The notes under the pieces are model-generated. The model did not search any database and was not told the origin of the DNA. It saw nothing but the letters and a program-made list of their open reading frames with translations. A stretch of 54,321 bases of DNA from a virus. Both the position numbers and the translations under genes were made by a program. How positions within the stretch are numbered: the stretch's first letter is position 1; every line of letters starts with the position of its first letter. Shown here in pieces: positions 2,138 through 41,684 of the stretch. The stretch is taken from UHGV virus genome UHGV-0135730, one strand, 5' to 3'.

Positions 2138-2278
2138 TTATCCTTCTTTGCCTCCTTTGAACCCCAAACACTCCGCGTATTCGTCAATGCTTAATGCTTC
2201 TTCACCTGGTGCCAGCAATTCAAAGTAGCGGGCATATAACTCAAAAACCCATGCCGGATATTTAGCGTTAGCGCTCAT
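2138..2278 (-). CDS. Hypothetical small protein (46 aa)
   Basis: MSANAKYPAWVFELYARYFELLAPGEE...; GGAGG RBS; not in ORF track (short). Confidence 0.4.
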   Translation of the reverse strand: MSANAKYPAWVFELYARYFELLAPGEEALSIDEYAECLGFKGGKEG

Positions 2279-2311: not shown

Positions 2312-2355
2312 TATATAACAAAATGGCACTGTCGAAACAATGCCATTTCGTATAC
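2312..2355 (-). promoter_or_regulatory. Candidate sigma70 promoter with upstream TACGAAATGGC motif
   Basis: Minus strand GTATACGAAATGGC-A-TTGTTT-17-TATATA; palindromic arms AAATGGCA/TGCCATTT. Confidence 0.4.
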
Positions 2356-2392
2356 TTTGCGAGGTAGATCACATTTATTGGTGAGAACTATA

Positions 2393-7211: not shown

Positions 7212-7291
7212 AATGCTCCCTCCTTTTCAGGTGATTTATACGCATTTCAGCGCTGCCGGATTTTTAAAGAGCATTTTGTTTGCTTGAAGTA

Positions 7292-7366
7292 TACAAAATG
7301 GATACATGCAAACAAGACAAAAAGCGCCATTATGTGATCCGCATCACGCAATGACGCCATTTTGTA
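7292..7366. promoter_or_regulatory. Intergenic regulatory region: divergent TACAAAATGG motifs flanking palindrome TGTGATCCGCATCACG
   Basis: TACAAAATGG at 7292-7301 (+) and 7357-7366 (-); TGTGA-N6-TCACG palindrome at 7333-7348. Confidence 0.45.
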
Positions 7367-7370
7367 AACT

Positions 7371-8153
7371 TCAGTCCGGTAAAACGCGGTTGAGCGTAGT
7401 ACGATTGATGGCCCGGTCGTTAGCCATAAATACAGCACGGGCAAAGCCGCGCGGCGTTAGTGAGCGGATCATCTTTGTTCGTTTCGTCCGGCCTCCAGTT
7501 TTAGCCCACCCTGGGTTATCACCAGAATTAAGATCTACAGCCCTGAAAAGCGGCCGTTTGAATCCGTTGCCGCACCATATGCAAGTTTTCTTCGTGTAAG
7601 CGTCGCGCGGCGGGTAAACATCCGGGAAAGCAGGATGCTTGTCGTCTTCCGGCAGGTAGCCACCGTAAGCGCACGGATTGAAGATAAAATCCGGTTTACG
7701 CCATAGCGTTGACAGTGCTCCCACCGGATTTTCCACCATCCACGGCACGTTATACATATTCGCCAGTTTTTCTACCAATTTTGCGTTATACGCCGCCTTT
7801 ACCTGGAAGTCAGGATCTTCTTTTCGCTTGTCAGCGAACCAGCGAGCGCCAGACACGGCGAGATTGTCGCATGGCGGGAAGCCCAGGATAATATCAGGCT
7901 CCGGGTAAACTGATAATTCAGGCGAGAACATCACCAGGAAGTGACTGTCAATCCACACGTTAACGTATTCAATATTCGGGTGAATGATTTTAACGCCTTC
8001 ATAATCGCCGTGATTTGCGCCGTCATAGTTGAAGCAATAGCATTTATATCCTGCTTCCGCCCAGTCTTTAACGGCGTACCCGCTGCCGTCGTACAGCGAC
8101 CACACAACCCAGTTTCTTAGCCAGTTATTTAACCAGTGTTTAGCCTTGCTCAT
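7371..8153 (-). CDS. DNA cytosine-C5 methyltransferase-like protein (divergent)
   Basis: Order of motifs resembles C5-MTases: YDGSGY (motif I-like), GFPPCDNLAVSGA (motif IV-like, PCD in place of PCQ), ENPVG (motif VI-like). Confidence 0.35.
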   Translation of the reverse strand: MSKAKHWLNNWLRNWVVWSLYDGSGYAVKDWAEAGYKCYCFNYDGANHGDYEGVKIIHPNIEYVNVWIDSHFLVMFSPELSVYPEPDIILGFPPCDNLAVSGARWFADKRKEDPDFQVKAAYNAKLVEKLANMYNVPWMVENPVGALSTLWRKPDFIFNPCAYGGYLPEDDKHPAFPDVYPPRDAYTKKTCIWCGNGFKRPLFRAVDLNSGDNPGWAKTGGRTKRTKMIRSLTPRGFARAVFMANDRAINRTTLNRVLPD

Positions 8154-8695
8154 TTTTTGCCCTCAAACGTGAAATAGCGGCGCATGATGATAGTGATCAC
8201 CGTCACCGCTGCCATTTTTGAGATAAACTGCATCGCTGATATTTCCGGCATAAACGCCATAAACGATAGCGTCGGGAAAATTAACGCATCCCCGATGGCT
8301 GAAGCTATATTTGCAGGCCAGCGTTTCGAATCGAAATCACCAGGCAAAACCCGGTAAACACCGCCAGATATAAGCGCACCGGAAACAACCGCGACGAATG
8401 ACGCTATTGCTACCATTCCTGCATCGTAATTTATTAGCACCGTGATTGCGCCAGCGGCGGCGCATGTTGTAGCCGACCATTTCAGGCCGCCGTCATATAA
8501 CAGGAAGTCACGGATCATCATATTGACACATACAGCGGCTACCGTAGTGATCGGAATTACCCACGGGCCGCAATGGTTAACAATAAGGTTGATGATCACG
8601 AAAACGGCGACATAAACGCAGGCCAATAACCTGTCAATTGTCACCTTTTTCATTTGGGTCATACCTCTTATCGCGAATAGCTTCAGATCTGTCAA
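8150..8695 (-). CDS. Multi-pass inner membrane protein, unknown function
   Basis: 181 aa with at least 5 hydrophobic helices; overlaps neighbours. Confidence 0.5.
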   Translation of the reverse strand: MTDLKLFAIRGMTQMKKVTIDRLLACVYVAVFVIINLIVNHCGPWVIPITTVAAVCVNMMIRDFLLYDGGLKWSATTCAAAGAITVLINYDAGMVAIASFVAVVSGALISGGVYRVLPGDFDSKRWPANIASAIGDALIFPTLSFMAFMPEISAMQFISKMAAVTVITIIMRRYFTFEGKK

Positions 8696-9131
8696 AACTC
8701 AAATCAAGCCGAGTTGAAATACAACCGCATTGAGGGTTAAGCATTGAATGAGGCAATCCCTTACAGCTTGTTATTGCTGCGTCATTTATTATTCCATCAT
8801 TAATATTGGCGGCAGTGAACTGCCTTTTCTTCAGTTCCTCTTCCCTATCGTTTAATATTTGCTCCGCTTTTAGTGCGCTGTAGCTAATTAAATCAACCAA
8901 TGTATCAGTAGGATCGCTTTCATTAACTAAAATGGCCTCTAAACGCGCCTCCTTAAGACAAATCAACAGATCCCACACATCAAGTGGGGTTAAACTTGCC
9001 CCCTTCTTAGCGTTGTATATAGTGGCTATTTTTGGCGCTGATTTTTCCTCTTTTCTGTCGTAGCCGTTTTGTTTACCCCTTTGCTCTATTGTTTCCGCTG
9101 CAACTCGTAATAAATCTGCTGCACTAGTCAT
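8634..9131 (-). CDS. Hypothetical protein
   Basis: Start at MTSAADLL; between Dam-like methylase and membrane protein. Confidence 0.45.
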   Translation of the reverse strand: MTSAADLLRVAAETIEQRGKQNGYDRKEEKSAPKIATIYNAKKGASLTPLDVWDLLICLKEARLEAILVNESDPTDTLVDLISYSALKAEQILNDREEELKKRQFTAANINDGIINDAAITSCKGLPHSMLNPQCGCISTRLDLSFDRSEAIRDKRYDPNEKGDN

Positions 9132-9663
9132 TTTCTGCACCTCTTGCATATAGCTCTTTACGCGTTATGTGTGTGAAAATACATTCATGTCTGCACCGTG
9201 GATGCCAGATCAAAAACAAGCTCCCCTTGTTGTTTCCGCTAACTGGCTTACCAGTCGCAGCATTTATAAAAGCCAGCCGCCCGCGCGTTATTAATCTGCA
9301 TTCGTTTGCCGTCTCAACGCCGTTCATGAACCAGCTAACAGAAACGTCAGCGGGCAACAACATTACGCAACCAATGTGATTTCGTTGATGTTCAAGCGCC
9401 GCTTTATCAACGAATGGCCCTGGGTTTGAGTATGGCGGATTCATCCAGACATATTCACCAGGCATTGCCACCGCTCCCCACGGATAATGCAGCGTGTCCA
9501 TTTCTTCGGTTATATATCGCGGGATTAATGCGTTTGCCTTGTTTGCCGCCACGTCAGCGACAAATTCAAACTCGCGGTCCATTCCTCTAAAAACTGGTTT
9601 AGGTGTCTGCCACAGGTCTTTAATTTCCTTCGGCGTGCTGCTGCCTCCAAAATCATTTTTCAT
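9124..9663 (-). CDS. DNA N6-adenine methyltransferase (phage Dam-like)
   Basis: NPPY catalytic motif (VWMNPPYSN) and size typical of phage N6A methylases. Confidence 0.7.
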   Translation of the reverse strand: MKNDFGGSSTPKEIKDLWQTPKPVFRGMDREFEFVADVAANKANALIPRYITEEMDTLHYPWGAVAMPGEYVWMNPPYSNPGPFVDKAALEHQRNHIGCVMLLPADVSVSWFMNGVETANECRLITRGRLAFINAATGKPVSGNNKGSLFLIWHPRCRHECIFTHITRKELYARGAEND

Positions 9664-9672
9664 TACGCCCCC

Positions 9673-9921
9673 TTAAAAATAATCTTGTTCAGTCCCCCAA
9701 CGGTTGTTTAAATACCCAACCAACCAGATAAAACGCTCAATGCTGATTAGCGGGGCAACCTTGCGATAATGCTTTTCTAATATCAGCCGCGTAGCTTTAT
9801 CGCTGTAGCCGTTTCTTTCTACCTCTGCTTTGCAGGCAGAAAGCGCCGCACGCGCGGCAGTTTTTACGGCATTAAATTGCAGTTCTGACATATTGAACAA
9901 AGCCATAGGATCACCATTCAT
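9673..9921 (-). CDS. Hypothetical protein
   Basis: Start placed at MNGDPMALF to avoid long overlap. Confidence 0.35.
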   Translation of the reverse strand: MNGDPMALFNMSELQFNAVKTAARAALSACKAEVERNGYSDKATRLILEKHYRKVAPLISIERFIWLVGYLNNRWGTEQDYF

Positions 9922-10144
9922 CCCAATCCTGCGAAACGGTAAGGCAAAAACCGATGAATGCGCTACCAGCCAATAAAGCGCGCACAGTAAAAAGAATACT
10001 TTCAATGTCGTTAAATTCAGGTACTGACCATGTAACAAACATCATACCCAGCGTAAATATAACGATAGCGCCGCTGAACACCAAAAAAACAGAAAGCGTA
10101 GCCAAAAGCCACGCCTTTAACCAGTTTAAAAAGATTTTAACCAT
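9911..10144 (-). CDS. Hypothetical membrane protein (2 TM)
   Basis: 77 aa with two long hydrophobic helices. Confidence 0.45.
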   Translation of the reverse strand: MVKIFLNWLKAWLLATLSVFLVFSGAIVIFTLGMMFVTWSVPEFNDIESILFTVRALLAGSAFIGFCLTVSQDWDEW

Positions 10145-10145
10145 T

Positions 10146-10349
10146 TTAAACCTCGTCTATTACACCGCCTTGCACGCGCTCTTTAATGTCCCATGTATGA
10201 GGCTTGCATAATTCTTGATAATAGTGATCCGGCCTGCTGCCGAAATACCATTTACCTTCCATATAAAAATAAACGCCCGAAAATATTCCGGGCGCTGCCT
10301 TTGTTGCTGATTCTGGAATCTTCCAGTCTTTATACTGTTTAAACTTCAT
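10146..10349 (-). CDS. Hypothetical protein
   Basis: 67 aa ORF. Confidence 0.4.
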   Translation of the reverse strand: MKFKQYKDWKIPESATKAAPGIFSGVYFYMEGKWYFGSRPDHYYQELCKPHTWDIKERVQGGVIDEV

Positions 10350-10533
10350 GAGCTTTTAAGTAACCTCTTCTGAATGCTTTGATGTAAAGTCCTAGCCTTC
10401 TTATATGCTGAACGCCATCAATGATGCGCACCAAATAAATTTTCCCGTTTGTGTCAGATACAAAACGACAACCAAAACCAATGCCAACCAACGTCAGGTT
10501 GTCAGGTATTCTATAATCAGTTTTCTGTTCCAT
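10339..10533 (-). CDS. Hypothetical protein
   Basis: 64 aa ORF. Confidence 0.4.
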   Translation of the reverse strand: MEQKTDYRIPDNLTLVGIGFGCRFVSDTNGKIYLVRIIDGVQHIRRLGLYIKAFRRGYLKAHEV

Positions 10534-10536
10534 GCC

Positions 10537-10629
10537 TCACCTCATATGGTATTCAATAAACCACCTGATAAACAGGCATAAGGCAATAAAACCCCAGCAA
10601 CAGCACATATAAAACAATGTGTCGTCCAT
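10537..10629 (-). CDS. Small hydrophobic peptide (30 aa)
   Basis: MDDTLFYMCCCWGFIALCLFIRWFIEYHMR; packed between flanking genes (3-nt gaps). Confidence 0.4.
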   Translation of the reverse strand: MDDTLFYMCCCWGFIALCLFIRWFIEYHMR

Positions 10630-10631
10630 AA

Positions 10632-10850
10632 TTAAGCCTCAATAACACCGTAATCAAACGTGCCCAAATACCGTTCGATACTTACAACTTCAATACCATC
10701 AACGCACCGTTTCCACACAGACACCTGGCTTTCATTTTCTCTGAAGTGCATATTAGAAAGCACTTCATCGGCTGGATAGCCTTTCCCGGCGACGTAGGCA
10801 TCGTGACCTACTCCACCCTCAACACAATAAAGCATTAATTCGCGGGCCAT
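10632..10850 (-). CDS. Hypothetical protein
   Basis: 72 aa ORF downstream of predicted promoter. Confidence 0.45.
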   Translation of the reverse strand: MARELMLYCVEGGVGHDAYVAGKGYPADEVLSNMHFRENESQVSVWKRCVDGIEVVSIERYLGTFDYGVIEA

Positions 10851-10924
10851 CTTATTTCCCTCCGCACCGTAAACCTTTTGATTTCAGTTCACAAAACGGA
10901 TTCGCGATCACAATACAAAACGTA

Positions 10925-10953
10925 TATTTATGTGATCGCAATCACGATGTCAA
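10925..10953 (-). promoter_or_regulatory. Candidate sigma70 promoter with operator-like palindrome in spacer
   Basis: Minus strand TTGACA-17-TAAATA; the 17-nt spacer contains palindrome TGTGATCGCAATCACG (10931-10946). Confidence 0.5.
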
Positions 10954-11570
10954 TGAAGTACGCGTTTTTCAGGTTCTGGCATTGGCTGTGCGTCTTTCCG
11001 TGCGTCATTAAGCACGGCTATAGCTGCCTGTACACCTAAATCATTTGCGCGCATATTATTGCCAACCATTTCGCCGTAAAATAATGGCATGATCGCCTTT
11101 ACTTCTTCCTCTGTGTGCCCTTCATCAATACACTTCTGTAACGCTTTAGCCTCGAATACTTTTTTCATTACGCCGCGCATAGAATACAGCGCAACGCTAC
11201 CCATATGATTTTTATCTAACGGGAAAATAACCGCACTTCCGAACGCCAGCGGGTCAATTTCTTCCGGCACTGGCACGCGACCATACTCCTCTTCCATGCG
11301 CTTTACGAAAGTAAGGCAGAAGACATAGCGAGCTACGGCAGTTTTTTCTTCAGCGTTTAAAGACACATAATCGCGGATCGACGCGTCCATCACAATATCA
11401 ACAATCTGTAACGCCAGATTCAAATCGGCGTCATACTTGCCAGATTCCATATCTTTCAATACTTCGTGATAATCTTTAATTTCCACTTCATGAAAACTTG
11501 CGTCTTCAGTGTAGCGAGTGATTAACATGCCTTCGCTGCCGAGTGAATAAGCTGTTTTGATGTCTTTCAT
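10950..11570 (-). CDS. Hypothetical protein
   Basis: 206 aa ORF. Confidence 0.5.
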   Translation of the reverse strand: MKDIKTAYSLGSEGMLITRYTEDASFHEVEIKDYHEVLKDMESGKYDADLNLALQIVDIVMDASIRDYVSLNAEEKTAVARYVFCLTFVKRMEEEYGRVPVPEEIDPLAFGSAVIFPLDKNHMGSVALYSMRGVMKKVFEAKALQKCIDEGHTEEEVKAIMPLFYGEMVGNNMRANDLGVQAAIAVLNDARKDAQPMPEPEKRVLH

Positions 11571-14358: not shown

Positions 14359-14649
14359 TTAATGGTAACGGACTTTATCCAGGGGTTTCTCCCCTAAATG
14401 GCGTGGTTGCGTTGCGTGGTAGTAGCTGCCACTTTCATTTTCCGTATACCATTTTACTGATCCTTTGCGACGTTCTTTTTTGCCATCTGGCTTGCATCTT
14501 TCGTCACTTGCCATTCGAATGGCTTTTTCCACATTGTCAGTTTTATTAATTGCAGGTGATGATTTTCTTTCGTTTTCTCTTTTTATCCTTCTGCGTTCCC
14601 TGGCATTTATTTTGCTATCACATTTACCATATATAATTGTAACGCTCAT
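14359..14649 (-). CDS. Arg-rich basic protein, candidate N-like antiterminator
   Basis: First gene after the pL-like promoter and a 340-nt leader; N-terminal arginine-rich motif NARERRRIKRENERK resembles N-family ARM. Confidence 0.4.
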   Translation of the reverse strand: MSVTIIYGKCDSKINARERRRIKRENERKSSPAINKTDNVEKAIRMASDERCKPDGKKERRKGSVKWYTENESGSYYHATQPRHLGEKPLDKVRYH

Positions 14650-14997: not shown

Positions 14998-15040
14998 AAT
15001 ATACGCCCCGTAAAACACCGAGTCAATCCATTTTGTATAC
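14998..15040 (-). promoter_or_regulatory. Early leftward promoter (pL-like)
   Basis: Minus strand GTATACAAAATGG-A-TTGACT-17-TATATT. Confidence 0.6.
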
Positions 15041-15107
15041 TTTTTTAAAATATTTTATATACTATTGATATTTAAACAATAAATAGCGTTTTCTGTTTAC
15101 GTTTTGG

Positions 15108-15150: not shown

Positions 15151-15798
15151 TTATGGCAGGTTTACGATCTTCGCATCAACAACCACGCCAATGATTTTTG
15201 ACTCTGGATTCATAGGGATCGGCGGATACAACGGATTCAGTGAACGCAAAAGTTTTCGGCCTCCATCAATAATCAACTGTTTAAACGTAGGTATCTGCCC
15301 TTCCTCCAGTTGTGCTATAACAAGTTTTCCGTCAATAGCTGGCGCGTGCGGGTCAACGAGTATCATAGTCCCCGCCGGGATGCTTAACCCCTGCGGTGCG
15401 TTCATTGATTCACCTTTAGCAACCAGCCAATAACTATCATCCGAACAAATAACGCTAGTAGCAACGTGTGGCAATGTTGATCGGTGTGTGCCTTCCATAT
15501 TGTTTGCTACATCCTTCCAGTCAACAACCGGGTAACTGCCTAAATCACGCGGTGGCGCTCCCGACAACGTGTTAGAAACAGAATCATCAATGACCATTCC
15601 GTCATGAGTAACAGTAAATTGCCGACGCCCAAGCGCCCGCATGATACGCGCAATATCTTCAAGATTCGGCTCACGGCGACCGTTCAGCCAGTGAGAAAGG
15701 CCGCCTTTGGTTATCCCCATAAGATCAGCCAATGAATCCTGGCTCATGCCCTGCGCCCGCATGAGTTGTTTTGCTAAGTCATACCATTTTGTTTTCAT
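15151..15798 (-). CDS. CI-like prophage repressor (HTH plus S24 LexA-like peptidase)
   Basis: N-terminal HTH (QDSLADLMGITKGGLSHWLNG), C-terminal S24 domain with GESM serine motif. Confidence 0.85.
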   Translation of the reverse strand: MKTKWYDLAKQLMRAQGMSQDSLADLMGITKGGLSHWLNGRREPNLEDIARIMRALGRRQFTVTHDGMVIDDSVSNTLSGAPPRDLGSYPVVDWKDVANNMEGTHRSTLPHVATSVICSDDSYWLVAKGESMNAPQGLSIPAGTMILVDPHAPAIDGKLVIAQLEEGQIPTFKQLIIDGGRKLLRSLNPLYPPIPMNPESKIIGVVVDAKIVNLP

Positions 15799-15857
15799 GT
15801 CGCTACCCTATAACCTAAAAAATTTTGATGCAAGTCACAAAACGTGTTTTTCAAGCC

Positions 15858-15885
15858 TTGACCTGTTAGCGCCATTATGTAAACT
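15858..15885 (+). promoter_or_regulatory. Early rightward promoter (pR-like) within operator region
   Basis: TTGACC-16-TAAACT; flanked by TTGATGCAAG / CTTGCAATGATGCAAGG operator-like repeats. Confidence 0.45.
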
Positions 15886-15961
15886 TGCTGACAAGGTAAA
15901 GCCATACTTGCAATGATGCAAGGAAAAAGATAAGGGAAAGCACAAAAAGGCCGACGCCTTA

Positions 15962-16103: not shown

Positions 16104-16349
16104 ATGTATTACGTGCGCAAGGCTTTTGATATTCGCCTGAATAACAATGATCCGGCGCAAAAACTCATCTTAATTGCACTGGCAACAAAGGCCGGATGCA
16201 ACGGCAAAAGCGAAGTAACGCCAGAAGAGATCGCGGAAATGTGCGAAATTTCGTTACGCGATACTATCTCTGCACTGCATCAACTGAAAAGAAGCGGCCT
16301 AATCAGCCAGCTGCCAGGTTTCTTCTGTGTTTATCAGTTAATGTTTTAG
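16104..16349 (+). CDS. HTH protein, paralog of replication-initiator N-terminal domain (possible Cro/cII-like regulator)
   Basis: First rightward gene, AGGAGA RBS; LILIALATKAGCNGKSEVTPEEIAEMCEISLRDTISALHQLKRSGLI parallels N-terminus of 16356-17363 product. Confidence 0.55.
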   Translation: MYYVRKAFDIRLNNNDPAQKLILIALATKAGCNGKSEVTPEEIAEMCEISLRDTISALHQLKRSGLISQLPGFFCVYQLMF

Positions 16350-16355
16350 TTCGTC

Positions 16356-17363
16356 ATGAGGTTAATGCTTATGAGTATGCGGCTAATGGTAGAGGTCTTC
16401 CATACTGAGGTTGGCGACCCAATGCACAAACTGGTGCTGTTGAAGTTGGCTGATAACGCTAATGATAACGGCGAGTGTTACCCTTCTTACCATCACATAG
16501 CAAAGGAGTGTGAGATCAGCAAAAGAACAGCTATGAGGGCTGTAGACTCACTTTGTGAAAAAGGGTTGTTGATTAAACAACCAAGATATTTAATCGGAGG
16601 AAAAGAGCAAACTAGTAATTTCTATGTAATAGTCCTTCCGTCATTGCATGGTAGTGTCACTATGACACCGGGGGTAGTGACACAGAGTCACCAGGGTAGT
16701 GACACAGAGTCACCGGGGGTAGTGTCACAGAGTCACCCTAACCAGTCATATATAACCAGTAAAGAGAACATTAAAAACAATACACTCCGTGTATTGGAAA
16801 AAGACCGGTCTATCAGCGAAGAAGATCGGGAGGTTAATCTGGCGGCATTGCGTTGCCTGGCCTTCTACAACGACAAGGCAGGATGCAAATGTCGTGATGC
16901 AAAGCCATTCGTAGAACTACTGACAGAAACAAAAACACGTAAAGCGTATACGGAGGATGAAATCACATTAGTGATTGAGTGGGCTTTAACACAATGGCGT
17001 AGCCGTGGTGGAACACCTAAGCCTATAAACATTTGCCGGGTAACTAAATTTGATGGGTATCTGGCTGACGCTGAAAAATGGCACAAACTGTCAGCCACTG
17101 CAAACGCTGCCGACGTAGTGGAGGCATTTAACAGCACGTTTGATGGCCTGTTGCCACCTGCCGAACTGGATCGGGATCTTGAACGCAAGATTTATGCGTT
17201 CACTGACTACCTGAAAGACAAAAGCATCAACGGCTTTGTCGCCTACTTTGAAACGTTCAAAAACACGGCTTCAGATTTTTACTTCGGCAATGGCTTCACA
17301 GCGACACTTGATTTCCTGCTTAAACCAAAAACGCTACGTGATACACGATGTGGCGCTCTTTGA
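16356..17363 (+). CDS. Replication initiator (lambda O-like, winged-HTH N-terminus)
   Basis: HTH replication-protein-like N-terminus; iterons within coding sequence as in lambda O; start may be ATG 16371. Confidence 0.7.
   Translation: MRLMLMSMRLMVEVFHTEVGDPMHKLVLLKLADNANDNGECYPSYHHIAKECEISKRTAMRAVDSLCEKGLLIKQPRYLIGGKEQTSNFYVIVLPSLHGSVTMTPGVVTQSHQGSDTESPGVVSQSHPNQSYITSKENIKNNTLRVLEKDRSISEEDREVNLAALRCLAFYNDKAGCKCRDAKPFVELLTETKTRKAYTEDEITLVIEWALTQWRSRGGTPKPINICRVTKFDGYLADAEKWHKLSATANAADVVEAFNSTFDGLLPPAELDRDLERKIYAFTDYLKDKSINGFVAYFETFKNTASDFYFGNGFTATLDFLLKPKTLRDTRCGAL
16650..16737. repeat. Origin iterons (4 direct repeats, about 22-bp period) inside initiator gene
   Basis: GGTAGTGACACAGAGTCACC at 16673, 16695, 16718 plus degenerate copy at 16650; each contains GTGAC/GTCAC inverted half-sites; AT-rich stretch follows. 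Confidence 0.8.
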
Positions 17364-18507: not shown

Positions 18508-19626
18508 ATGTCGCAAAGAAAAATCAGCGATGAGCAATTGATCGCTGAATACAACAACGGTTTAACGTACAAACAGATTGCTGAGAAGTACGGCATGTCT
18601 AAACGCAATGTCGAGCGCCTGGGCGCAAAACTGGCGAAACGTGGTTTATTATCAACACGCCGCGCGCCTGGTTTTGGCGTCAATGGCGAGTCGTTGCTAG
18701 TCGATAAAAACGGCAATGTGATCATGCGCTGGATTAAAACAGCCCGTGACCGCGACGAAATGGAACAGCTAATGGAAGCGGCCCGCGACGCTTTCACGGA
18801 TGAAATACCACGCGCGGAGGCTGTGCCAGTGCCTGAAATTGATTTTCAAAAAAGCCTGGCACTTTACCCGGTATTTGACCTGCATATCGGGGCGCTTGCT
18901 CATAAAGCTGAATGCGGAGAGAGCTACGATACTGGGATCGCTGAGCGCGTGTTGAATGACTTCTTTGACTACGCTGTTGGCGCTGCTCCGATGTCTGAAA
19001 AAGCAGTACTGCTCCTCGGTGGCGATCTACTTCATTCTGACGGTATGGTCCCGGTGACGCCAACAAGCGGGCACATTCTTGATCAAGATAGTCGCTACGC
19101 AAAACTTGTTTATGTGGCGATCCGGTCTGTCCGGCGGGCGGTAGGAAAGATGTTGTTAAATCATAAAGATGTTGAAATCCAGGTGTTATCAGGCAATCAC
19201 GATCAGTCGGGCATGATTTGGCTACGTGCGGCGCTGGCGGCTTTTTACGAAGATGAACCGCGCGTGACGGTTGATGTATCACCTGCTATTGTCCACCACA
19301 CACAGTACGGTAAAACATTCCTTGCATATCATCACGGTCATACTATCAAAAAACCTGAAAATTTGTTGTCTGCCTGCGTATCTGACTGGCGTGAGGATTT
19401 CGGCAAGTCGGCGGCTGTTTACGCTCACACTGGACATCTACATCACCAATCTGTTGTTGAAACATCATTGGGGATCGTTGAACACCACGGCACGTTAGCT
19501 GGCAAAGACGCATATTCGACTAATGGCGGCTGGCGGTCGCGGCGGCTGGCAGCGGTGATTATTTACAGCCCGGATCATGGGGAAATTGGGCGCTTTGTTT
19601 ATTACCCTGAATATTCCATTTTGTAA
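18508..19626 (+). CDS. HTH domain fused to calcineurin-like metallophosphoesterase
   Basis: N-terminal HTH (LTYKQIAEKYGMSKRNVERL); phosphoesterase motifs DLH, GGDLLH, GNHD, HHGH, GHLHH in canonical order. Confidence 0.6.
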   Translation: MSQRKISDEQLIAEYNNGLTYKQIAEKYGMSKRNVERLGAKLAKRGLLSTRRAPGFGVNGESLLVDKNGNVIMRWIKTARDRDEMEQLMEAARDAFTDEIPRAEAVPVPEIDFQKSLALYPVFDLHIGALAHKAECGESYDTGIAERVLNDFFDYAVGAAPMSEKAVLLLGGDLLHSDGMVPVTPTSGHILDQDSRYAKLVYVAIRSVRRAVGKMLLNHKDVEIQVLSGNHDQSGMIWLRAALAAFYEDEPRVTVDVSPAIVHHTQYGKTFLAYHHGHTIKKPENLLSACVSDWREDFGKSAAVYAHTGHLHHQSVVETSLGIVEHHGTLAGKDAYSTNGGWRSRRLAAVIIYSPDHGEIGRFVYYPEYSIL

Positions 19627-19644
19627 ACCGGAGGTAATGACATA

Positions 19645-28235: not shown

Positions 28236-28412
28236 CGCAATGACTCCATAATGTTAATTAACGGAATAATTCTACCATTTTGTGATCTGTGTTGCATTTT
28301 CTGCTTACACAAAATGTATTTGTTGATTTTTATCAATATACGAAATGTGGTTTTGTCGGATATTTAAGTCACCGGATGAACCGGACGAACCAACAAGAGC
28401 GAGGATTCAAAG

Positions 28413-28661
28413 ATGAAAAACGTATTCAAAGTGGTTTTGTTCGCTGCGGCTGTAGCTCTTACTGGTTGTGCTGTTGACAAAGAGGCTGCATTGCATAACC
28501 TGCCGAACAGCGGAGTGATTCCACAGGATGTTGTCTATGATGGTAGCGGTCATCTTGTCTATGACACTGAAAAGCTACCGTATACTGGGCAATGGTGTCA
28601 TGAACTCGATCACAACATGCGCCGCATCGGTAGCCCGTCAAACTGTGTAGCTAACTACTAA
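28413..28661 (+). CDS. Small lipoprotein (opposite-strand cargo between fibre genes)
   Basis: Signal peptide with lipobox LTGC (MKNVFKVVLFAAAVALTGCA); own terminator. Confidence 0.65.
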   Translation: MKNVFKVVLFAAAVALTGCAVDKEAALHNLPNSGVIPQDVVYDGSGHLVYDTEKLPYTGQWCHELDHNMRRIGSPSNCVANY

Positions 28662-28694: not shown

Positions 28695-31600
28695 AACCTG
28701 AGAATGTACCAGAACCGCGCGACACAATGACAGTCGGCGAGTTTATATATGCCCCCTTACTATTTTGAGCGGATACACTAATTATCACTGTAACGCTCCT
28801 GTTAGCTACTGATGCTGCGTGCATAACAAGGCGCTCTTCGCCAGTCATAGAAAGTTGTTTCTGCGAACCGCTGATGTTTATCGTACATCCGCCGAAGCCC
28901 TTAACGTTTGCTATGACACAAACATGTCGGGCGTATGCTGCGTCTGTTGTATCGTAGTACTGAATTGTTTTTTGCAATACGCCATTTTGTAACCTGCTAA
29001 CGTCAGATCCCGTATACATGTTCGCAACGTCACCGATAAATGTCTTCGCTTCCAGTTGTCCTGAGAATTTACCGTTGGTTGCGTACACTGTACCGTTAAA
29101 CACCCCATCATTAGCGTATACCGTGCCCCTTATTGTTGCCTGGTTAAATACTGCTGCACCGTTTTTGTTTATCGCCCAGCCTGTACCGTTTTCCCAGCTG
29201 TAATTACTGGATTGTATTTGCTGAGCTATTTTTGCAGTAGTGATCGATGCGTCTTTAATAAACGCTTCTTTCACATACATTGCACCGTTAGACACATAGA
29301 ATGGCGTTGTATATGTGCCGTTTGCAGCCGTCATCAACACGAAGCGGTCAACAAGGAAGATACACTGCGATTGGACGTTAGTACCGTTGCCAGTCAGCCC
29401 AAGCGACATACCTGTCGCATACTTCATGCCGTTGTTGTCGGTTGCCAGCTTGATGGAATACGTCGCATCGACATTACCTTTGAAGTCGGTTAACGCTTTC
29501 GAAGTAGTCTGTATAGCTGTTGTGTTCCCGTTAACGGTCACTGTTAGCTGATCGATTTTGCTTGATAATGCCTCGTCAGCCGTTGCCATTGTCTGTGACC
29601 ATTCTGTAATACTTGAGTTTACAGAATCGAAAGACGCTGAGATCTGGCCGAATTTTTCCGCGCTTGATGCCTCATGCGTAGAAAGCGCCGTTGATACCTC
29701 AGACACCTTCGAGTTAATCGTACTGGTAAGCGATGAGTTAAGGTTACTTATCGCGTCAGTGCGTGCCTTCGTTTCGTCAGCGACGGCCTTGTCGAGACGG
29801 TTAACGTTGCTTGTCACTTTGCCATCAAGGGTTGAAATTGATGCGTTCACGCCAGTGATGGCTTGTGCTCTGGCGCTGGACTCGTCAGCAATCGCCTGGT
29901 CCAGTCTGCTAACCTCGGATTCAGTGTTGCTTTCGAGGGTGTTAATGCTCGCATTCACTCCACTGATAGCTTCTGTTCTTGCGCTGGTTTCGTTGGCAAT
30001 AGCCTGATCTAAACGTTTAACGCTGGCGTCGGTTTTCTTGTCGAGCGCTGAAATGCTTGCGTTAACGTTGCTCACCGCCTGGCTGCGTGCGTTGGTTTCG
30101 TCAGCGATAGCCTTATCGAGACGTGAAACGCTGGCATCGGTTTTCTTATCAAGATCCGTGATCGATGCTTTTACCACGCCGATTGCTTCGGCTGTAGCTT
30201 TTTTCTCTTCAGCGATAACACTGTCAATACGATCAATCTGCGCGCTTGTTTCCTTGCGACCTTTCTTGTACTGGGCCGTAAGCGTAACACGCGTGTTGGT
30301 TTGAGCGATTGAGTTGTTAATCAGAGCAATAGATGCGTTTTGCAGGCTTGCTTTGGTCTGGCTTATTTCGTCGCTGTTCTTGTCAACGTTATTTTCAACC
30401 TTGCCAAGCTCGGCGCTGATTCCAGATATAGCCTGAGCACGGGCGCTTGATTCGTCAGCAATAGCCTGGTCTAAGCGTTTTACGCTGGCGTTTGTGTTAC
30501 TTTCGAGCGTTGTTAAATCAGCTTTAACCTCTGTTATTGCGTCGCTTCTTGCCTGCGTTTCATCTGCTATTGCTTTATCGAGTCTGGAAACGCTGGCGTC
30601 TGTTTTGCTTTCAAGGTTGCTTATTGATGCTTTCACATCGCTCACAGCCTGGGCGCGGGCGCTGACCTCGTCAGCAATAGACTGGTCAAGGCGTTTAACT
30701 GCCGAATTGGTGTTACCTTCAAGCGTGTCAATACTTGCTTTGACACTACTGATAGCTTCAGTTCTTGCACTGGTTTCGTCTGCTATTGCTTGATCCAGGC
30801 GTTTAACGCTGGCGTCGGTTTTCTTGTCAAGCGCTGAAATGCTTGCGTTAACGTCACTGACTGCCTGTGTGCGGGCGTTCGTTTCGTCTGCAATAGCCTG
30901 ATCAAGTCTATTGACGCTGGCATCGGTTTTCTTGTCGAGATTGCTTATTGATGCGTTCACGCCGTTAATTGCTTCGGCGCGGGCACTGGTTTCGTCAGCT
31001 ACTGCGCGTTCCACGCTGGAGATCTGACCCTTGAGGTTGGAATCCATCGTGTTCATTTCTGCCGTGATGGTTTTCAGAGATTCAGCCGTGGCCTGTTTCT
31101 CATCAGCAATAACGTTGTCAATGCGGTCAATTTCAGCCTTCGTCTCTGTCCTGCCTTTCTTGTACTGTGCAGTGAGAGTAACCCGCGTGTTGGTCTGAGC
31201 AAGGGAGTTGTTGATAAGTGCCAACGACGCGTTTTGCAGGCTTGCTTTTGCTTGCGCCAGTTCACTGCCAACTTTTTCGCTGGATACCTCCAGAGAGTCT
31301 ATTCTTGCCTCATGCTGTCCAATATCGTCGGCGTTTTCCCCAACCTTTTTGTAAAGATCTTCCGTCTCTTTTTTCAGTGTGTCCGTGTCAGCTTTTATGG
31401 CCCCTGTTTCTGTGATTAGGCCGTCCGTATCAGTCCTCAATTCGTCAGTGATGTTTGTCAGGTTGTCAGTGTCAACCCTTAAATCGTCAGTGATGTTTGT
31501 CAGGTTATCAGTTGCAGTTTTGAGGCTGTCAGTAGCGTCTTTAAGGTCATTTGTAGCGCTTTCGATAAGGTCGGCGCGGTTGCCAAGATCTTCAATATCG

Positions 31601-36020: not shown

Positions 36021-36084
36021 TGTGATCGCCATCACGCTAAATCATACCAAAACGGTTGATCGCGTTTTTTACAATACGTATATT
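36021..36084 (+). promoter_or_regulatory. CRP-like palindrome plus sigma70 promoter for cargo cassette
   Basis: TGTGATCGCCATCACG (36021-36036) centred about 62 bp upstream of predicted start; TTGATC-17-TATATT at 36056-36084. Confidence 0.5.
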
Positions 36085-36100: not shown

Positions 36101-36286
36101 ATGGTTAACAAAATGGCGCGGAGGTGTGAGGTGGATGATAAGGTGTGGAGGTTGACGGTGTTCCTTAGTGATGGCAGGAAAATGACTGTAGCTCTGTATA
36201 AGGATGAAGGCGAGGCACTGACTGACGCGCTTTTACTTGCTGAAGACGATCGCGTTTTGGGGTACAGGATCGAACCTGTCAAATGA
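36101..36286 (+). CDS. Hypothetical protein (cargo cassette)
   Basis: Start at MVNK with AAGGAAG RBS. Confidence 0.5.
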   Translation: MVNKMARRCEVDDKVWRLTVFLSDGRKMTVALYKDEGEALTDALLLAEDDRVLGYRIEPVK

Positions 36287-36298
36287 GAGGTTAACGAA

Positions 36299-36646
36299 AT
36301 GCAAAAATATAGTCTTGATGTGTGGTTAAGTGGTTGCAAGGAGTGTTTCGGATTATTTGATAGCGAAGAGGCAGCTTTGGAAGAAGGAAGGATTCTTGAA
36401 TGTAGTTTAGGCCATCCAGTGAAATATGCTGCTAATCCGGTGCAGGTAAATGATGAGGTGGAAAACATGAACCCGAAAGATATTAACTTTAACGTCAATG
36501 TTGAATTTGCAGGCTCTATGGATCAGGCTTGCCCTGGTGAAATCCACGCAAAAGGCTTCCCGGCTGACGATCCTGAGGCAAAACGCGAATACGAAAAAGC
36601 GGCGAAAGACTTCTGCATTGATAACCTGGGCGCATTCGATAAATAA
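36299..36646 (+). CDS. Hypothetical protein (cargo cassette)
   Basis: 115 aa ORF on strand opposite to tail operon. Confidence 0.55.
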   Translation: MQKYSLDVWLSGCKECFGLFDSEEAALEEGRILECSLGHPVKYAANPVQVNDEVENMNPKDINFNVNVEFAGSMDQACPGEIHAKGFPADDPEAKREYEKAAKDFCIDNLGAFDK

Positions 36647-36655
36647 GGCGGCAAC

Positions 36656-36904
36656 ATGGGGCGGCGCAATCACGGCGATTATGTGTACACGTTGAAACAG
36701 GCCGCCCGCCTAGTTGGTTATCATGAACACGAATTTATTGATTTGCTGATTGAGCGCGGGATACTGTACCAGGTCTGTTTAACGCTGTACCCGAAAGCGA
36801 AATACCTACAGGAAAAGTTATTCATCATCATGACGGATGAAAACCAGGTTAACCATTCATTCGTCACGGATAAGGGCGTTAATTATCTGCGTGATAACTT
36901 ATAG
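36656..36904 (+). CDS. Putative HTH DNA-binding protein (cargo cassette)
   Basis: YTLKQAARLVGYHEHEFIDLLIERGIL resembles MerR/excisionase-type HTH. Confidence 0.45.
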   Translation: MGRRNHGDYVYTLKQAARLVGYHEHEFIDLLIERGILYQVCLTLYPKAKYLQEKLFIIMTDENQVNHSFVTDKGVNYLRDNL

Positions 36905-37639: not shown

Positions 37640-37668
37640 ACATCTTTACGCGCCTCTACGCGAAAAAT
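37640..37668 (-). promoter_or_regulatory. Conserved 29-nt element upstream of M (second copy at portal start)
   Basis: Minus strand ATTTTTCGCGTAGAGGCGCGTAAAGATGT; near-identical to 49853-49881. Confidence 0.45.
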
Positions 37669-37739
37669 GAGAAATTCATCACAAGAATTATAACCAGTTT
37701 ACAAAATGGCTTCACATAAGGCGTGACAAGATGTATATA
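37668..37739 (+). promoter_or_regulatory. CRP-like site plus TACAAAATGG-type promoter for cargo cassette
   Basis: TGAGAAATTCATCACA (37668-37683); GTTTACAAAATGGC then TTCACA-17-TATATA (37711-37739). Confidence 0.5.
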
Positions 37740-37779: not shown

Positions 37780-37935
37780 ATGGAACGCTATGTGGTTGTG
37801 ATGCTGAACAAAGCATTCGAACAGGTGGAAGTTGCGATTGTGAAGGGCTTTGATGATGCATTCAAATACGGTCAATTCATGATGAATGCAAAAGAAGATG
37901 AATACCGTGATTTCTTCCTGAAAGTGGTCAACTAA
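37780..37935 (+). CDS. Hypothetical small protein (cargo cassette)
   Basis: 51 aa ORF. Confidence 0.45.
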   Translation: MERYVVVMLNKAFEQVEVAIVKGFDDAFKYGQFMMNAKEDEYRDFFLKVVN

Positions 37936-37953
37936 TGGATTGCGGGGTGGGTT

Positions 37954-38208
37954 ATGAAATTGGTAATGATTGGTAAAAACCTGAAAGCACAGAAAAACGC
38001 ACAGGACCGGATCATCAAAAAGGGCAAGGCTTTATTAAATGCTTTCCTGAAAAAAGAGGCCAACCCCAAAAAATTACGCGATGGCTACGGTTATAAATTT
38101 GACATCAACCCCGATTGGCGGTTATTCAGCGAAGATTTAAAGATGTGGTTAATTATTGACCACCTGGAATATAACAGGCACTGTGGGGTGAAAGGTGCTC
38201 ACAAGTGA
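37954..38208 (+). CDS. Hypothetical basic protein (cargo cassette)
   Basis: 84 aa ORF. Confidence 0.5.
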   Translation: MKLVMIGKNLKAQKNAQDRIIKKGKALLNAFLKKEANPKKLRDGYGYKFDINPDWRLFSEDLKMWLIIDHLEYNRHCGVKGAHK

Positions 38209-38239
38209 CACGGATTTGAATGTTGCGGAGGAAAACAAA

Positions 38240-38410
38240 ATGAAAAATCCGGCAAATAAAAGCAACGTAAAACGCATAGCCTGGGTGCTAAAATATATGG
38301 ATAGTAAAGGGGATACATATACATGCCCATTTTTCAGGTATACTGACGCGGTATTTGCCAGAAGTGTACACGGAGGGAAAATTGAGAGAGGATATACAAG
38401 ATTTGAGTAA
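38240..38410 (+). CDS. Hypothetical small protein (cargo cassette)
   Basis: Start at MKNPANK with GGAGG RBS. Confidence 0.45.
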   Translation: MKNPANKSNVKRIAWVLKYMDSKGDTYTCPFFRYTDAVFARSVHGGKIERGYTRFE

Positions 38411-38448
38411 ATTTATTCACGAAATCAATAACATGACGAAGGTTAACA

Positions 38449-38628
38449 ATGGTTATTCATGAGACTGAAGAATGCAGAAGTATTAATCTTAGTATTGAAG
38501 ATGACGGGAGATTATGGATCGTTAGCGACTGCGAGATGATTGTAATAGACCAAAAGCAAGCTGACGAACTAATAAGAGCATTACAGCTTTATGCAAACGG
38601 CGAATTTAAAAATGATGAAATTGAATAA
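38449..38628 (+). CDS. Hypothetical small protein (cargo cassette)
   Basis: 59 aa ORF ending at terminator. Confidence 0.45.
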   Translation: MVIHETEECRSINLSIEDDGRLWIVSDCEMIVIDQKQADELIRALQLYANGEFKNDEIE

Positions 38629-41027: not shown

Positions 41028-41089
41028 TGTGATCTAGATCTCTATTCTATACAAAATGGCTTCAGTTCAACGAATACATTTTGTATAAA
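41028..41089 (+). promoter_or_regulatory. CRP-like site plus TACAAAATGG-type promoter for cargo cassette
   Basis: TGTGATCTAGATCTCT (41028-41043) centred about 60 bp upstream of predicted start; TATACAAAATGGC then TTCAGT-17-TATAAA. Confidence 0.5.
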
Positions 41090-41165: not shown

Positions 41166-41255
41166 ATGAAAAACGTAAACTACCACCCCAACGAGCATGA
41201 GCGTTATGCCGACTTCATCAAAGAAATGTTGAAAGCACTTAAAAACAAAAACTAA
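41166..41255 (+). CDS. Hypothetical small protein (29 aa)
   Basis: MKNVNYHPNEHERYADFIKEMLKALKNKN; precedes secreted-protein gene. Confidence 0.35.
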   Translation: MKNVNYHPNEHERYADFIKEMLKALKNKN

Positions 41256-41267
41256 GCGGGGTGAGTT

Positions 41268-41684
41268 ATGAAACGGTTAATTAGAGCGGCAATGATGGCG
41301 GTAATGGTTGGTTTGGCATTCAACGCAAATGCAAACGATGTAATAAATATAAACTGCGATGAAGTAGCAAATAACGTTGCCGAATACCATAAAATTTTCA
41401 AGAAGGAACCCGCAGCCATCAAGGTTTTTTATAAAGCAATTGACAAGCATTTCGAAGGTAAACCAGTTTATGCAAGATGGTTTAATTATGGGCTTGTGAA
41501 GGAGGCTGCTGTAGGTGTCGTATTCGAAGGTAACAATGAAATAAGAAACAGAATAGCCAACGAGTGCAACGCTGATAAAGCCGCATTTGCTGAAAGAATA
41601 TTTAACGAAGGCGGCGCGGGTGTTAAAAATCATGCTATCGTTGATTTAGGTAACGGCAGAATTGAAATTGTAAGGATCAGATAA
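41268..41684 (+). CDS. Secreted protein of unknown function (cargo)
   Basis: Cleavable signal peptide MKRLIRAAMMAVMVGLAFNANA; own promoter and terminator on opposite strand. Confidence 0.6.
   Translation: MKRLIRAAMMAVMVGLAFNANANDVININCDEVANNVAEYHKIFKKEPAAIKVFYKAIDKHFEGKPVYARWFNYGLVKEAAVGVVFEGNNEIRNRIANECNADKAAFAERIFNEGGAGVKNHAIVDLGNGRIEIVRIR

Follow-up and report, generated by a model that had tools for sequence, protein, structure and literature searches.

The window analysed here, that is, the whole 54,321-nt stretch of the UHGV virus genome UHGV-0135730, is on the evidence of its sequence a mEp021-like (mEpimmI) temperate coliphage, and our subject is a family of palindromic sites resembling those of the host regulator CRP, two of which lie in the early-left operon. 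The 6-kb stretch around these two has 88–90% identity to the phages mEp010, mEp554, mEp021, mEp515, mEp013, mEp044, and MagusPhagus, and the tail region of the window gives matches to the same phages (mEp021-type group). Members of mEpimmI are Nus-dependent, non-lambdoid temperate coliphages, and the paper that describes them reports no promoters or operators and uses the word promoter once (PMC11893012). Their frequency in human faecal E. coli has been reported to equal that of lambdoid phages. The window runs in the reverse orientation of the mEp021 record.

The landmarks around the operon are the N-like Gp17 (14359..14649) and the CI-like repressor Rep (15151..15798), both on the minus strand, together with two promoters called by a promoter scan, namely PL (TTGACT, 17 nt, TATATT; 15026..14998, minus strand) and PR (TTGACC, 16 nt, TAAACT; 15858-15885, plus strand), the latter driving a small winged helix-turn-helix (wHTH) protein and an O-like initiator. 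Downstream of the first early-left site and its module come nutR2 and then the ninF, ninG, resolvase, and Q genes, with nutR2 placed after the methyltransferase gene in the published description (PMC11893012). Downstream of the second are the homologues of gp26 and gp27 and, beyond t3, ipe and dam.

A family of CRP-like sites in the window

The earlier note on this DNA had singled out two near-identical palindromic 16-mers, and both can be read directly where it placed them, TGTGATCCGCATCACG at 7333-7348 (site 1) and TGTGATCGCAATCACG at 10931-10946 (site 2). They do belong to the same family and are identical at 13 of 16 positions. The pattern TGTGAT-N4-ATCACG has three exact matches in the window, all on the plus strand, where shuffles expect 0.02, and the third exact copy is TGTGATCGCCATCACG at 36021-36036 (site 3). 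Each of the three sites carries nine of the ten core positions of TGTGA-N6-TCACA, a pattern which, allowing up to one mismatch, is found eight times in the window versus 1.63 expected. The CRP consensus AAATGTGATCTAGATCACATTT is a 22-bp site with two-fold symmetry (PMC2859248).

We scored the window with a rough CRP matrix, an approximate one made from 24 classic sites of E. coli, the consensus of which is the published AAATGTGATCTAGATCACATTT and on which the lac site reaches 16.4 bits. Matches of at least 14 bits number seven in the window, compared with 0.63 in simulations and none in the lambda genome, and matches of at least 16 bits number four, compared with 0.03 and none, respectively. 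The highest matrix score in the window is that of site 1 (22-mer 7330-7351, 17.3 bits), while site 3 (22-mer start 36018) has 14.9 bits and site 2 (22-mer 10928-10949) 12.4 bits. The other members are found in module C (TGCGAGGTAGATCACA, 2358..2373, 22-mer start 2355, 16.8 bits), in module B (TGTGATCTAGATCTCT, 41028..41043, 22-mer start 41025, 16.7 bits), upstream of PR (TTTGATGCAAGTCACA, 15824..15839, 22-mer start 15821, 16.3 bits), ahead of the lipoprotein gene Lpp (TGTGATCTGTGTTGCA, 28281..28296, 22-mer start 28278, 14.3 bits), and in module A (TGAGAAATTCATCACA, 37668..37683, 22-mer start 37665), a weaker ninth with 11.1 bits here and up to 15.7 bits in relatives. By our own reading of the predicted open reading frame (ORF) lists, seven of the eight top matrix matches are intergenic; a match with its 22-mer start at 31828 lies inside the tail fibre gene and is probably there by chance.

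Sixteen majority half-sites give the profile wwwTGTGAtct, in which G5, G7, and A8 are each kept in 15 of the 16, T6 in 13, and T4 in 12, with A/T flanks and a weak TCT preference at positions 9–11. This profile agrees with AAATGTGATCTAGATCACATTT even at positions that were not used in the search for the sites. Overall, at least eight intergenic sites form one family that fits the CRP core TGTGA-N6-TCACA, and the two early-left 16-mers count among its best-matched members.

Conservation among relatives follows the same core. At site 1, site 3, module B, and Lpp only one or two of the ten core columns vary, versus four or five of the six centre columns. The 46 sequences compared at site 1 keep the pentamers while the centre varies (scores of 15.7–20.3 bits), and many of them carry a perfect TGTGA-N6-TCACA with very different centres, some without GATC. 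A regulation by Dam through GATC was considered, as every copy in the window has this tetramer, and was rejected, given that relatives lose it at site 1 (TGTGATGAATGTCACA) and keep the pentamers; GATC is simply part of the CRP consensus. The 42 sequences of site 3 all have GTGA and TCACG (with C in place of the leading T in one) and differ in the four bases at the centre. Their majority form is TGTGATCTGCGTCACG, and the conserved unit is therefore the CRP-type 5-6-5 core and not the 6-4-6 palindrome that the earlier note had described. The site upstream of PR is nearly invariant in 44 sequences.

Spacing of the modules and a second motif

Every site of the family stands at a characteristic distance from a -10-like hexamer, counted from the centre of the site up to the hexamer's first base, with each module read toward its nearest downstream gene. 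On the minus strand this distance is 47.5 bp for the modules of site 1 (TATACT), site 2 (TGAACT, which is TAAACT in most relatives), and C (TTATAT, 2318..2313, ahead of the ORF 2138..2278). On the plus strand it is 48.5 bp for the modules of PR (TAAACT), Lpp (TATACG, 28337-28342, ahead of the lipoprotein gene 28413-28661), and B (TATAAA, 41084-41089, ahead of the cassette 41166-41684), 50.5 bp for site 3 (TATATT), and 58.5 bp for module A (TATATA, 37734-37739, ahead of the cassette starting at 37780), which is offset by about one helical turn from the others. The spacing is unchanged in nearly every listed relative even though the sequence of the linker differs (28–48 relatives per module, with only four sequences in the comparison for C). 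Thus, it is 47.5 bp in 45 of 46 sequences at site 1 and in 48 of 48 at site 2, and 50.5 or 51.5 bp in the relatives at site 3. For modules A and B the 14 most frequent variants of site, distance, and -10 (out of 21 in each case) have 58.5 bp (35 of 42 sequences) and 48.5 bp (38 of 45 sequences), respectively.

If the -10 is taken as -12 to -7 of a predicted start, the site centres fall at -59.5 to -62.5, and at -70.5 in module A, the latter being the position of the CRP site of malT. Such positions near -60 or -70 would be those of a Class I activator. Class I CRP sites have their centre at -61.5 or farther upstream (PMC2859248). The claim that related sites at the cargo promoters are in activator positions is in keeping with these values, which are about -62 for site 3, -60 for Lpp and for B, and -70 for A.

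The cargo in question consists of four plus-strand cassettes which lie inside the minus-strand tail operon and therefore need promoters of their own: the exclusion lipoprotein Lpp (28413-28661), a three-ORF cassette ending in an ANT/KilAC-like protein (36101-36904), four small ORFs (37780-38628), and a 29-aa ORF followed by a secreted 138-aa protein (41166-41684). Each of them has its own CRP-like site and -10-like element. Site 3 is found upstream of a plus-strand cassette inserted between the tail genes M and L, and the promoter of this cassette (TTGATC, 17 nt, TATATT; 36056..36084, plus strand) is called by the scan and kept in relatives. The phages mEp021 and mEp515 carry a different type of lipoprotein but retain 84 bp at the start of the control region, within which the site lies. 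This Lpp promoter region was found only in the mEpimmI group.

Hexamers of the modules have poor -35 partners (TTGTnn), and in five modules the hexamer lies within a second repeated motif, CCATTTTGTAWACT, at its end. As the asymmetric 14-mer CCRTTWTGTAWACT, this motif has nine matches in the window at up to one mismatch, versus 0.16 expected; they are located at 2343-2356, 7357-7370, 15028-15041, 15872-15885, 19616-19629, and 28982-28995 on the plus strand and at 7288-7301, 10886-10899, and 37696-37709 on the minus strand. Two tandem reverse copies of it, 22 bp apart, adjoin the -35 of PL, and CCATTTTGTAWACT is the sole motif common to the PL and PR regions. It may be a Rep operator or an element of the promoter core, and as an operator of Rep it seems a better candidate than the palindrome. 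Identification of CCATTTTGTAWACT as a sigma-32, sigma-S, IHF, DnaA, or TyrR element was dropped because of the poor fit. The association of both elements was also searched for in 2.9 million viral contigs, with the pattern TGTGA-N6-TCACA-N{30,38}-TTTTGTAWAC, and 29 of the 33 matches came from mEpimmI contigs, with a gap of exactly 34 in 29 of 29 although 30–38 was allowed.

Inverted pairs of the motif are present at 2313-2356 (ACAAAATGGC ... GCCATTTCGT) and at 41046-41089 (TATACAAAATG ... CATTTTGTATA), and they look like back-to-back divergent promoter cores; in each pair the CRP-like site is located at about +1 of one core and about -60 of the other. In the neighbourhood of PR there is another perfect 6-4-6 palindrome (CTTGCAATGATGCAAG, 15908-15923), at about +16 to +31 of the promoter, of which the relatives keep the arms with a variable centre (AAAGAC, AAGGAT), and it could be a leader hairpin or a further operator. 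As for Rep, its ORF in the window has 215 aa and starts with MKTKW, and the mEp021 record gives a 198-aa product from an internal Met (15747-15798); the N-terminal lysines of the longer form are discussed in the mEpimmI paper (PMC11893012).

The two early-left sites

The module of site 1 includes a predicted internal promoter on the minus strand (7288..7315), with a -35 TTGTTT (7315..7310), a 16-nt spacer, and a -10 TATACT (7293..7288) contained in CCATTTTGTATACT (7301..7288). Directly downstream of it lies boxA of nutR2 (TGCTCTTTAAAAA, 7261..7273, minus strand), which is invariant in relatives. The site itself is the apex of a hairpin and no promoter-like pair brackets 7333-7348, so that the earlier note, which spoke of promoter spacers in the plural, does not hold for it. 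The inner hairpin, a 34-bp inverted repeat (7323..7358, minus strand), is the predicted terminator TERM_4 or t4 of mEp021, and in this genome outer A:U pairs extend it to 7317-7365; the equivalent 16-mer of mEp021 (L001 3711-3726) falls within the annotated TERM_4 (L001 3702-3735). This terminator is listed as predicted only, just upstream of nutR2 (PMC11893012). In this genome the hairpin has a folding energy of -24 kcal/mol (z -2.9) and is followed by UUUUU. The tail is partly kept, most relatives having CUUUUCGCC and mEp021 CUAUUCACC, and the scan does not call a terminator at the site. The stem is present and nearly invariant in relatives, in which the inner 15 pairs hardly change, with rare one-sided changes, and the outer pairs are not kept. 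Covariation is unavailable as a support for it, as the stem hardly varies and none of its 21 pairs shows a compensatory change. Site 1 probably also serves as the stem of the predicted t4, a function that leaves the rest of the family unexplained.

Sites 1 and 2 belong to paralogous modules of about 65 bp, with the weak -35 hexamers TTGTTT and TTGTGA, respectively. The predicted promoter of the site 2 module (10886..10913, minus strand) has its -35 at 10913..10908, a 16-nt spacer, and a -10 TGAACT (10891..10886) in CCGTTTTGTGAACT. Site 2 is the least conserved member of the family: in one clade it reads the perfect TGTGATTGCGATCACA and the -10 is TAAACT, and in another it reads AGTAATTCCGATCACA (3.3 bits) and the -10 is a decayed TAAGCC. 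The orthologues examined include L331, L334, L335, L342, and L343. The palindrome and the -10 of site 2 look like one unit that decays jointly.

Also legible at site 2 is the arrangement on which the earlier note was built, a minus-strand promoter TTGACA-17-TAAATA (10925..10953, with the hexamers at 10953..10948 and 10930..10925) whose spacer the palindrome fills exactly. It cannot be extended to the other sites, and the promoter is hardly the strong one that had been described, since its -10 agrees with TATAAT at only three of six positions, the final T being absent, and no promoter is called at this place by the scan. The G of TTGACA (10951) occurs in this genome alone, 47 of 47 relatives having TTAACA, TTAACC, or TTAATA. 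This G is the middle base of the TGA stop codon (10950-10952) of the gene 10950..11570, a codon that reads TAA in 47 of 47 relatives, and the perfect TTGACA exists because of this single TAA-to-TGA change. The replacement of TAAACT by TGAACT in the -10 of the module took place in the same lineage. A functional -35/-10 pair bracketing the palindrome, as expected of a spacer operator, was found neither at site 1 nor at site 2. The promoter could nevertheless be real in this genome alone, through the new TTGACA and the weakened -10 of the module.

Proposed regulation by host CRP, rival readings, and known systems

The family may well represent DNA sites for one dimeric regulator, most likely the host CRP with cyclic AMP (cAMP), that mainly activates phage promoters in a Class I-like manner, a reading to which we give an even chance. 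Each site would then be part of a repeated promoter module, formed by the CRP-like site and a weak phage promoter about 60 bp downstream, and CRP would recruit RNA polymerase through the alpha C-terminal domain from the Class I position. Bound in this way, cAMP-CRP would raise transcription from the two early-left internal promoters (one toward nutR2, nin, and Q, the other toward the gp26-to-ipe region), from PR and module C, and from the four opposite-strand cargo cassettes of the tail region, the exclusion lipoprotein included. In favour of the promoters themselves, those of PR and site 3 are called by the scan. What the sequences show is the family itself, its enrichment, and its fixed and conserved spacing, and we infer from them that CRP binds, where transcription starts, and whether regulation is positive or negative. 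A single regulator for all the sites, as the earlier note suggested, is plausible, with host CRP as the best candidate, and its idea that the same protein represses some promoters and activates others is only geometrically possible, and elsewhere than proposed.

Several points weigh against regulation by CRP. The matrix is a rough one, and one of its 24 sites was mis-registered. Centres at -59.5 or -60.5 (with the -10 at -12 to -7) are 1–2 bp short of -61.5, and the range of 47.5–51.5 bp fits no single helical phase unless the start-site distances differ between modules. Conservation at site 1 spans the 34-bp inverted repeat and exceeds by far the 22 bp of a CRP site; many relatives have a decayed site 2 (3–8 bits), and the -10 of its module in this genome, TGAACT, is without the critical A at position 2. 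Site 3 has TCACG in 42 of 42 relatives and never TCACA. The site upstream of PR, with its invariant centre, could alternatively be an operator of the phage repressor. In addition, the module is confined to the mEpimmI group, which would suit a phage-encoded factor too, and the mEpimmI paper does not mention CRP at all (PMC11893012).

Binding of the family by a phage-encoded protein, whether Rep, the wHTH protein, or some other factor, is in our view unlikely, even though the restriction of the module to mEpimmI and its constant association with the phage-specific CCATTTTGTAWACT speak for it. The wHTH protein (16104-16349, 81 aa), in the position of Cro, is the first gene product of the PR operon and a paralog of the N-terminal part of the O-like initiator, to which it has 37% identity; in Pfam it gives a weak match to a Crp-like HTH (E 6.6e-4, below the cut-off). 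The gene of this initiator contains 3.2 tandem 23-bp copies of GGTAGTGACACAGAGTCACC (16666-16737) with the dyad GTGAC-N5-GTCAC, presumably the replication origin, and these iterons resemble GTGA-N6-TCAC. Nevertheless, close relatives have at least four types of recognition helix in the wHTH protein while the sites do not change, the one upstream of PR remaining TTTGATGCAAGTCACA in nearly all of the 44 sequences, and this candidate was rejected. An invariant site would suit Rep equally, as the repressor is 91–98% identical among relatives, and the PR-upstream site overlaps the -35 and spacer of the predicted PRM, like OR3 of lambda. Against Rep, the palindrome is absent from the cores of PL (15026..14998) and PR (15858-15885), which share only CCATTTTGTAWACT, and the nearest copy is about 60 bp upstream of PR; it is thus not the primary Rep operator, and Rep as the binder is disfavoured. 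Activators of the CI type act from about -42 and not from -60. Furthermore, the half-site profile holds no information beyond the CRP consensus. Loci with a repressor 37% identical to this one gave no CRP-like matches; the module is almost only found in mEpimmI contigs, and comparison across immunities therefore does not separate CRP from a conserved phage factor. By its fit to the site sequences, host CRP would remain the best binder.

The remaining readings assign the sites another role or none. According to the earlier note, one regulator would repress the strong promoter of site 2 through its 17-bp spacer, and by extension site 1, and activate the cargo promoters, and we consider this decidedly unlikely. 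The elements of the promoter are all present here, the -10 of the alternative module is weakened to TGAACT so that this promoter could matter locally, and CRP is known to repress an overlapped promoter while activating another (galP2 versus galP1). Four modules (A, B, C, and that of site 2) also have an outward-facing -10-like hexamer that ends 1–3 nt from the palindrome, so that the palindrome covers about -5 to +12 relative to it, and room for repression is possible at these outward elements and at PRM, not where it had been proposed. The G of TTGACA occurring in none of the 47 relatives, the poor and uncalled -10, and the lack of bracketing hexamers at the hairpin of site 1 all argue against it, and the contrast between repressor and activator positions vanishes, as sites 1 and 2 lie 47.5 bp upstream of a conserved -10-like hexamer, in the same upstream geometry as the cargo sites. 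An alternative in which the sites act as RNA hairpins of minus-strand transcripts (in termination, processing, or stability) and not as DNA we regard as very improbable. It would account for the stable hairpin of site 1 with its UUUUU, for the TERM_4 annotation in mEp021, and for three exact copies in one orientation. However, sites 2 and 3 have only 5-bp stems without a U-tract and are no better than shuffles as hairpins (the fold of site 3 has a z of -0.7 and that of site 2 pairs with a neighbouring repeat), most relatives read GTCAC at site 3, which shortens the stem, and other members have one degenerate arm and cannot form hairpins. Moreover, site 1 has no compensatory pairs (0 of 21) and a poorly kept U-tail (GCGCTATTCACC in mEp021), the sites stand upstream of the predicted starts of plus-strand cassettes, and an Rfam search of the window gave no match. 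That the sites have no function, being duplicated intergenic DNA or chance, is scarcely credible. Shared ancestry of the paralogous modules of sites 1 and 2 explains part of their likeness, and the closeness of the relatives (80–95% identity) limits the power of the conservation argument, yet the enrichment is far above shuffles and above lambda, the core is kept while the centre and linker vary, the spacing is fixed in eight modules otherwise unrelated in sequence, and the Lpp site is kept across a swap of the lipoprotein gene.

If CRP does bind, host cAMP would affect early gene expression, the route to Q via nutR2, and the cargo expressed in lysogens (the exclusion lipoprotein, the antirepressor-like cassette, and possibly ipe), giving a concrete link between the carbon supply in the gut and the behaviour of the prophage. 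The third nut site would be explained as well, because a separate promoter would lie just upstream of nutR2. In a wider version, which we find doubtful, the whole mEpimmI family would have wired host cAMP-CRP into at least eight promoters through a bipartite module of CRP site and CCATTTTGTAWACT (maybe a repressor operator). The same dimer would activate the inward promoter from about -60 and block the outward one from about +1, so that replication, Q via nutR2, superinfection exclusion, and tail cargo would be set jointly by carbon status and immunity. CRP control would be a first concrete regulatory hypothesis for a common and little-studied phage family, the promoters and operators of which had so far not been described. 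The analysis also corrects the reading of both early-left sites, site 1 being not only a terminator and site 2 not a spacer operator.

Among known systems, galP1/galP2 is the closest in mechanism to the dual regulator of the earlier note, and the sites of A, B, C, and site 2 similarly stand near -60 with respect to one -10-like element and at about -5 to +12 with respect to the opposite one; there, however, the promoters overlap on the same strand, whereas here the paired elements are divergent and the outward promoters putative. Spacer operators (OR and OL of lambda, or engineered lacO and tetO) resemble site 2 in this genome only, with a palindrome in a 17-bp spacer, and differ in that relatives do not keep the arrangement, its -10 is poor, and no copy is present in the cores of PL and PR. 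In the t4 (TERM_4) and nutR2 region of mEp021 the same hairpin stands between the gene for the cytosine methyltransferase and nutR2 itself (Negrete-Mendez et al. 2025, PMC11893012; GenBank MH706966), but it is annotated as a predicted terminator only, and nothing is said of the CRP-like core, of its paralog at site 2, or of a promoter-like element lying between t4 and nutR2. Class I CRP promoters of E. coli such as lacP1 (-61.5) share with the modules the 22-bp symmetric site, TGTGA-N6-TCACA, a weak -35, a location about 60 bp or one turn more upstream of the (here predicted) start, and A/T tracts on the downstream side, some 18–22 bp from the site centre, at the place of contact between DNA and the alpha C-terminal domain (PMC2859248). 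Unlike them, the phage modules have predicted centres (-59.5 to -62.5) some of which depart from the canonical phase, and host CRP promoters have no counterpart of the extra conserved CCATTTTGTAWACT. A precedent for host CRP acting on several promoters of one coliphage, and tying its life cycle to carbon status, is phage T1, in which cAMP-CRP directly regulates the promoters pir, dam, and recE (Laganenka et al. 2019, PMC6737242). The effect of CRP in T1 is repression, and the layout of the sites there has not been defined, whereas in this unrelated phage family the sites are explicit, with a fixed spacing, and their geometry suggests activation.

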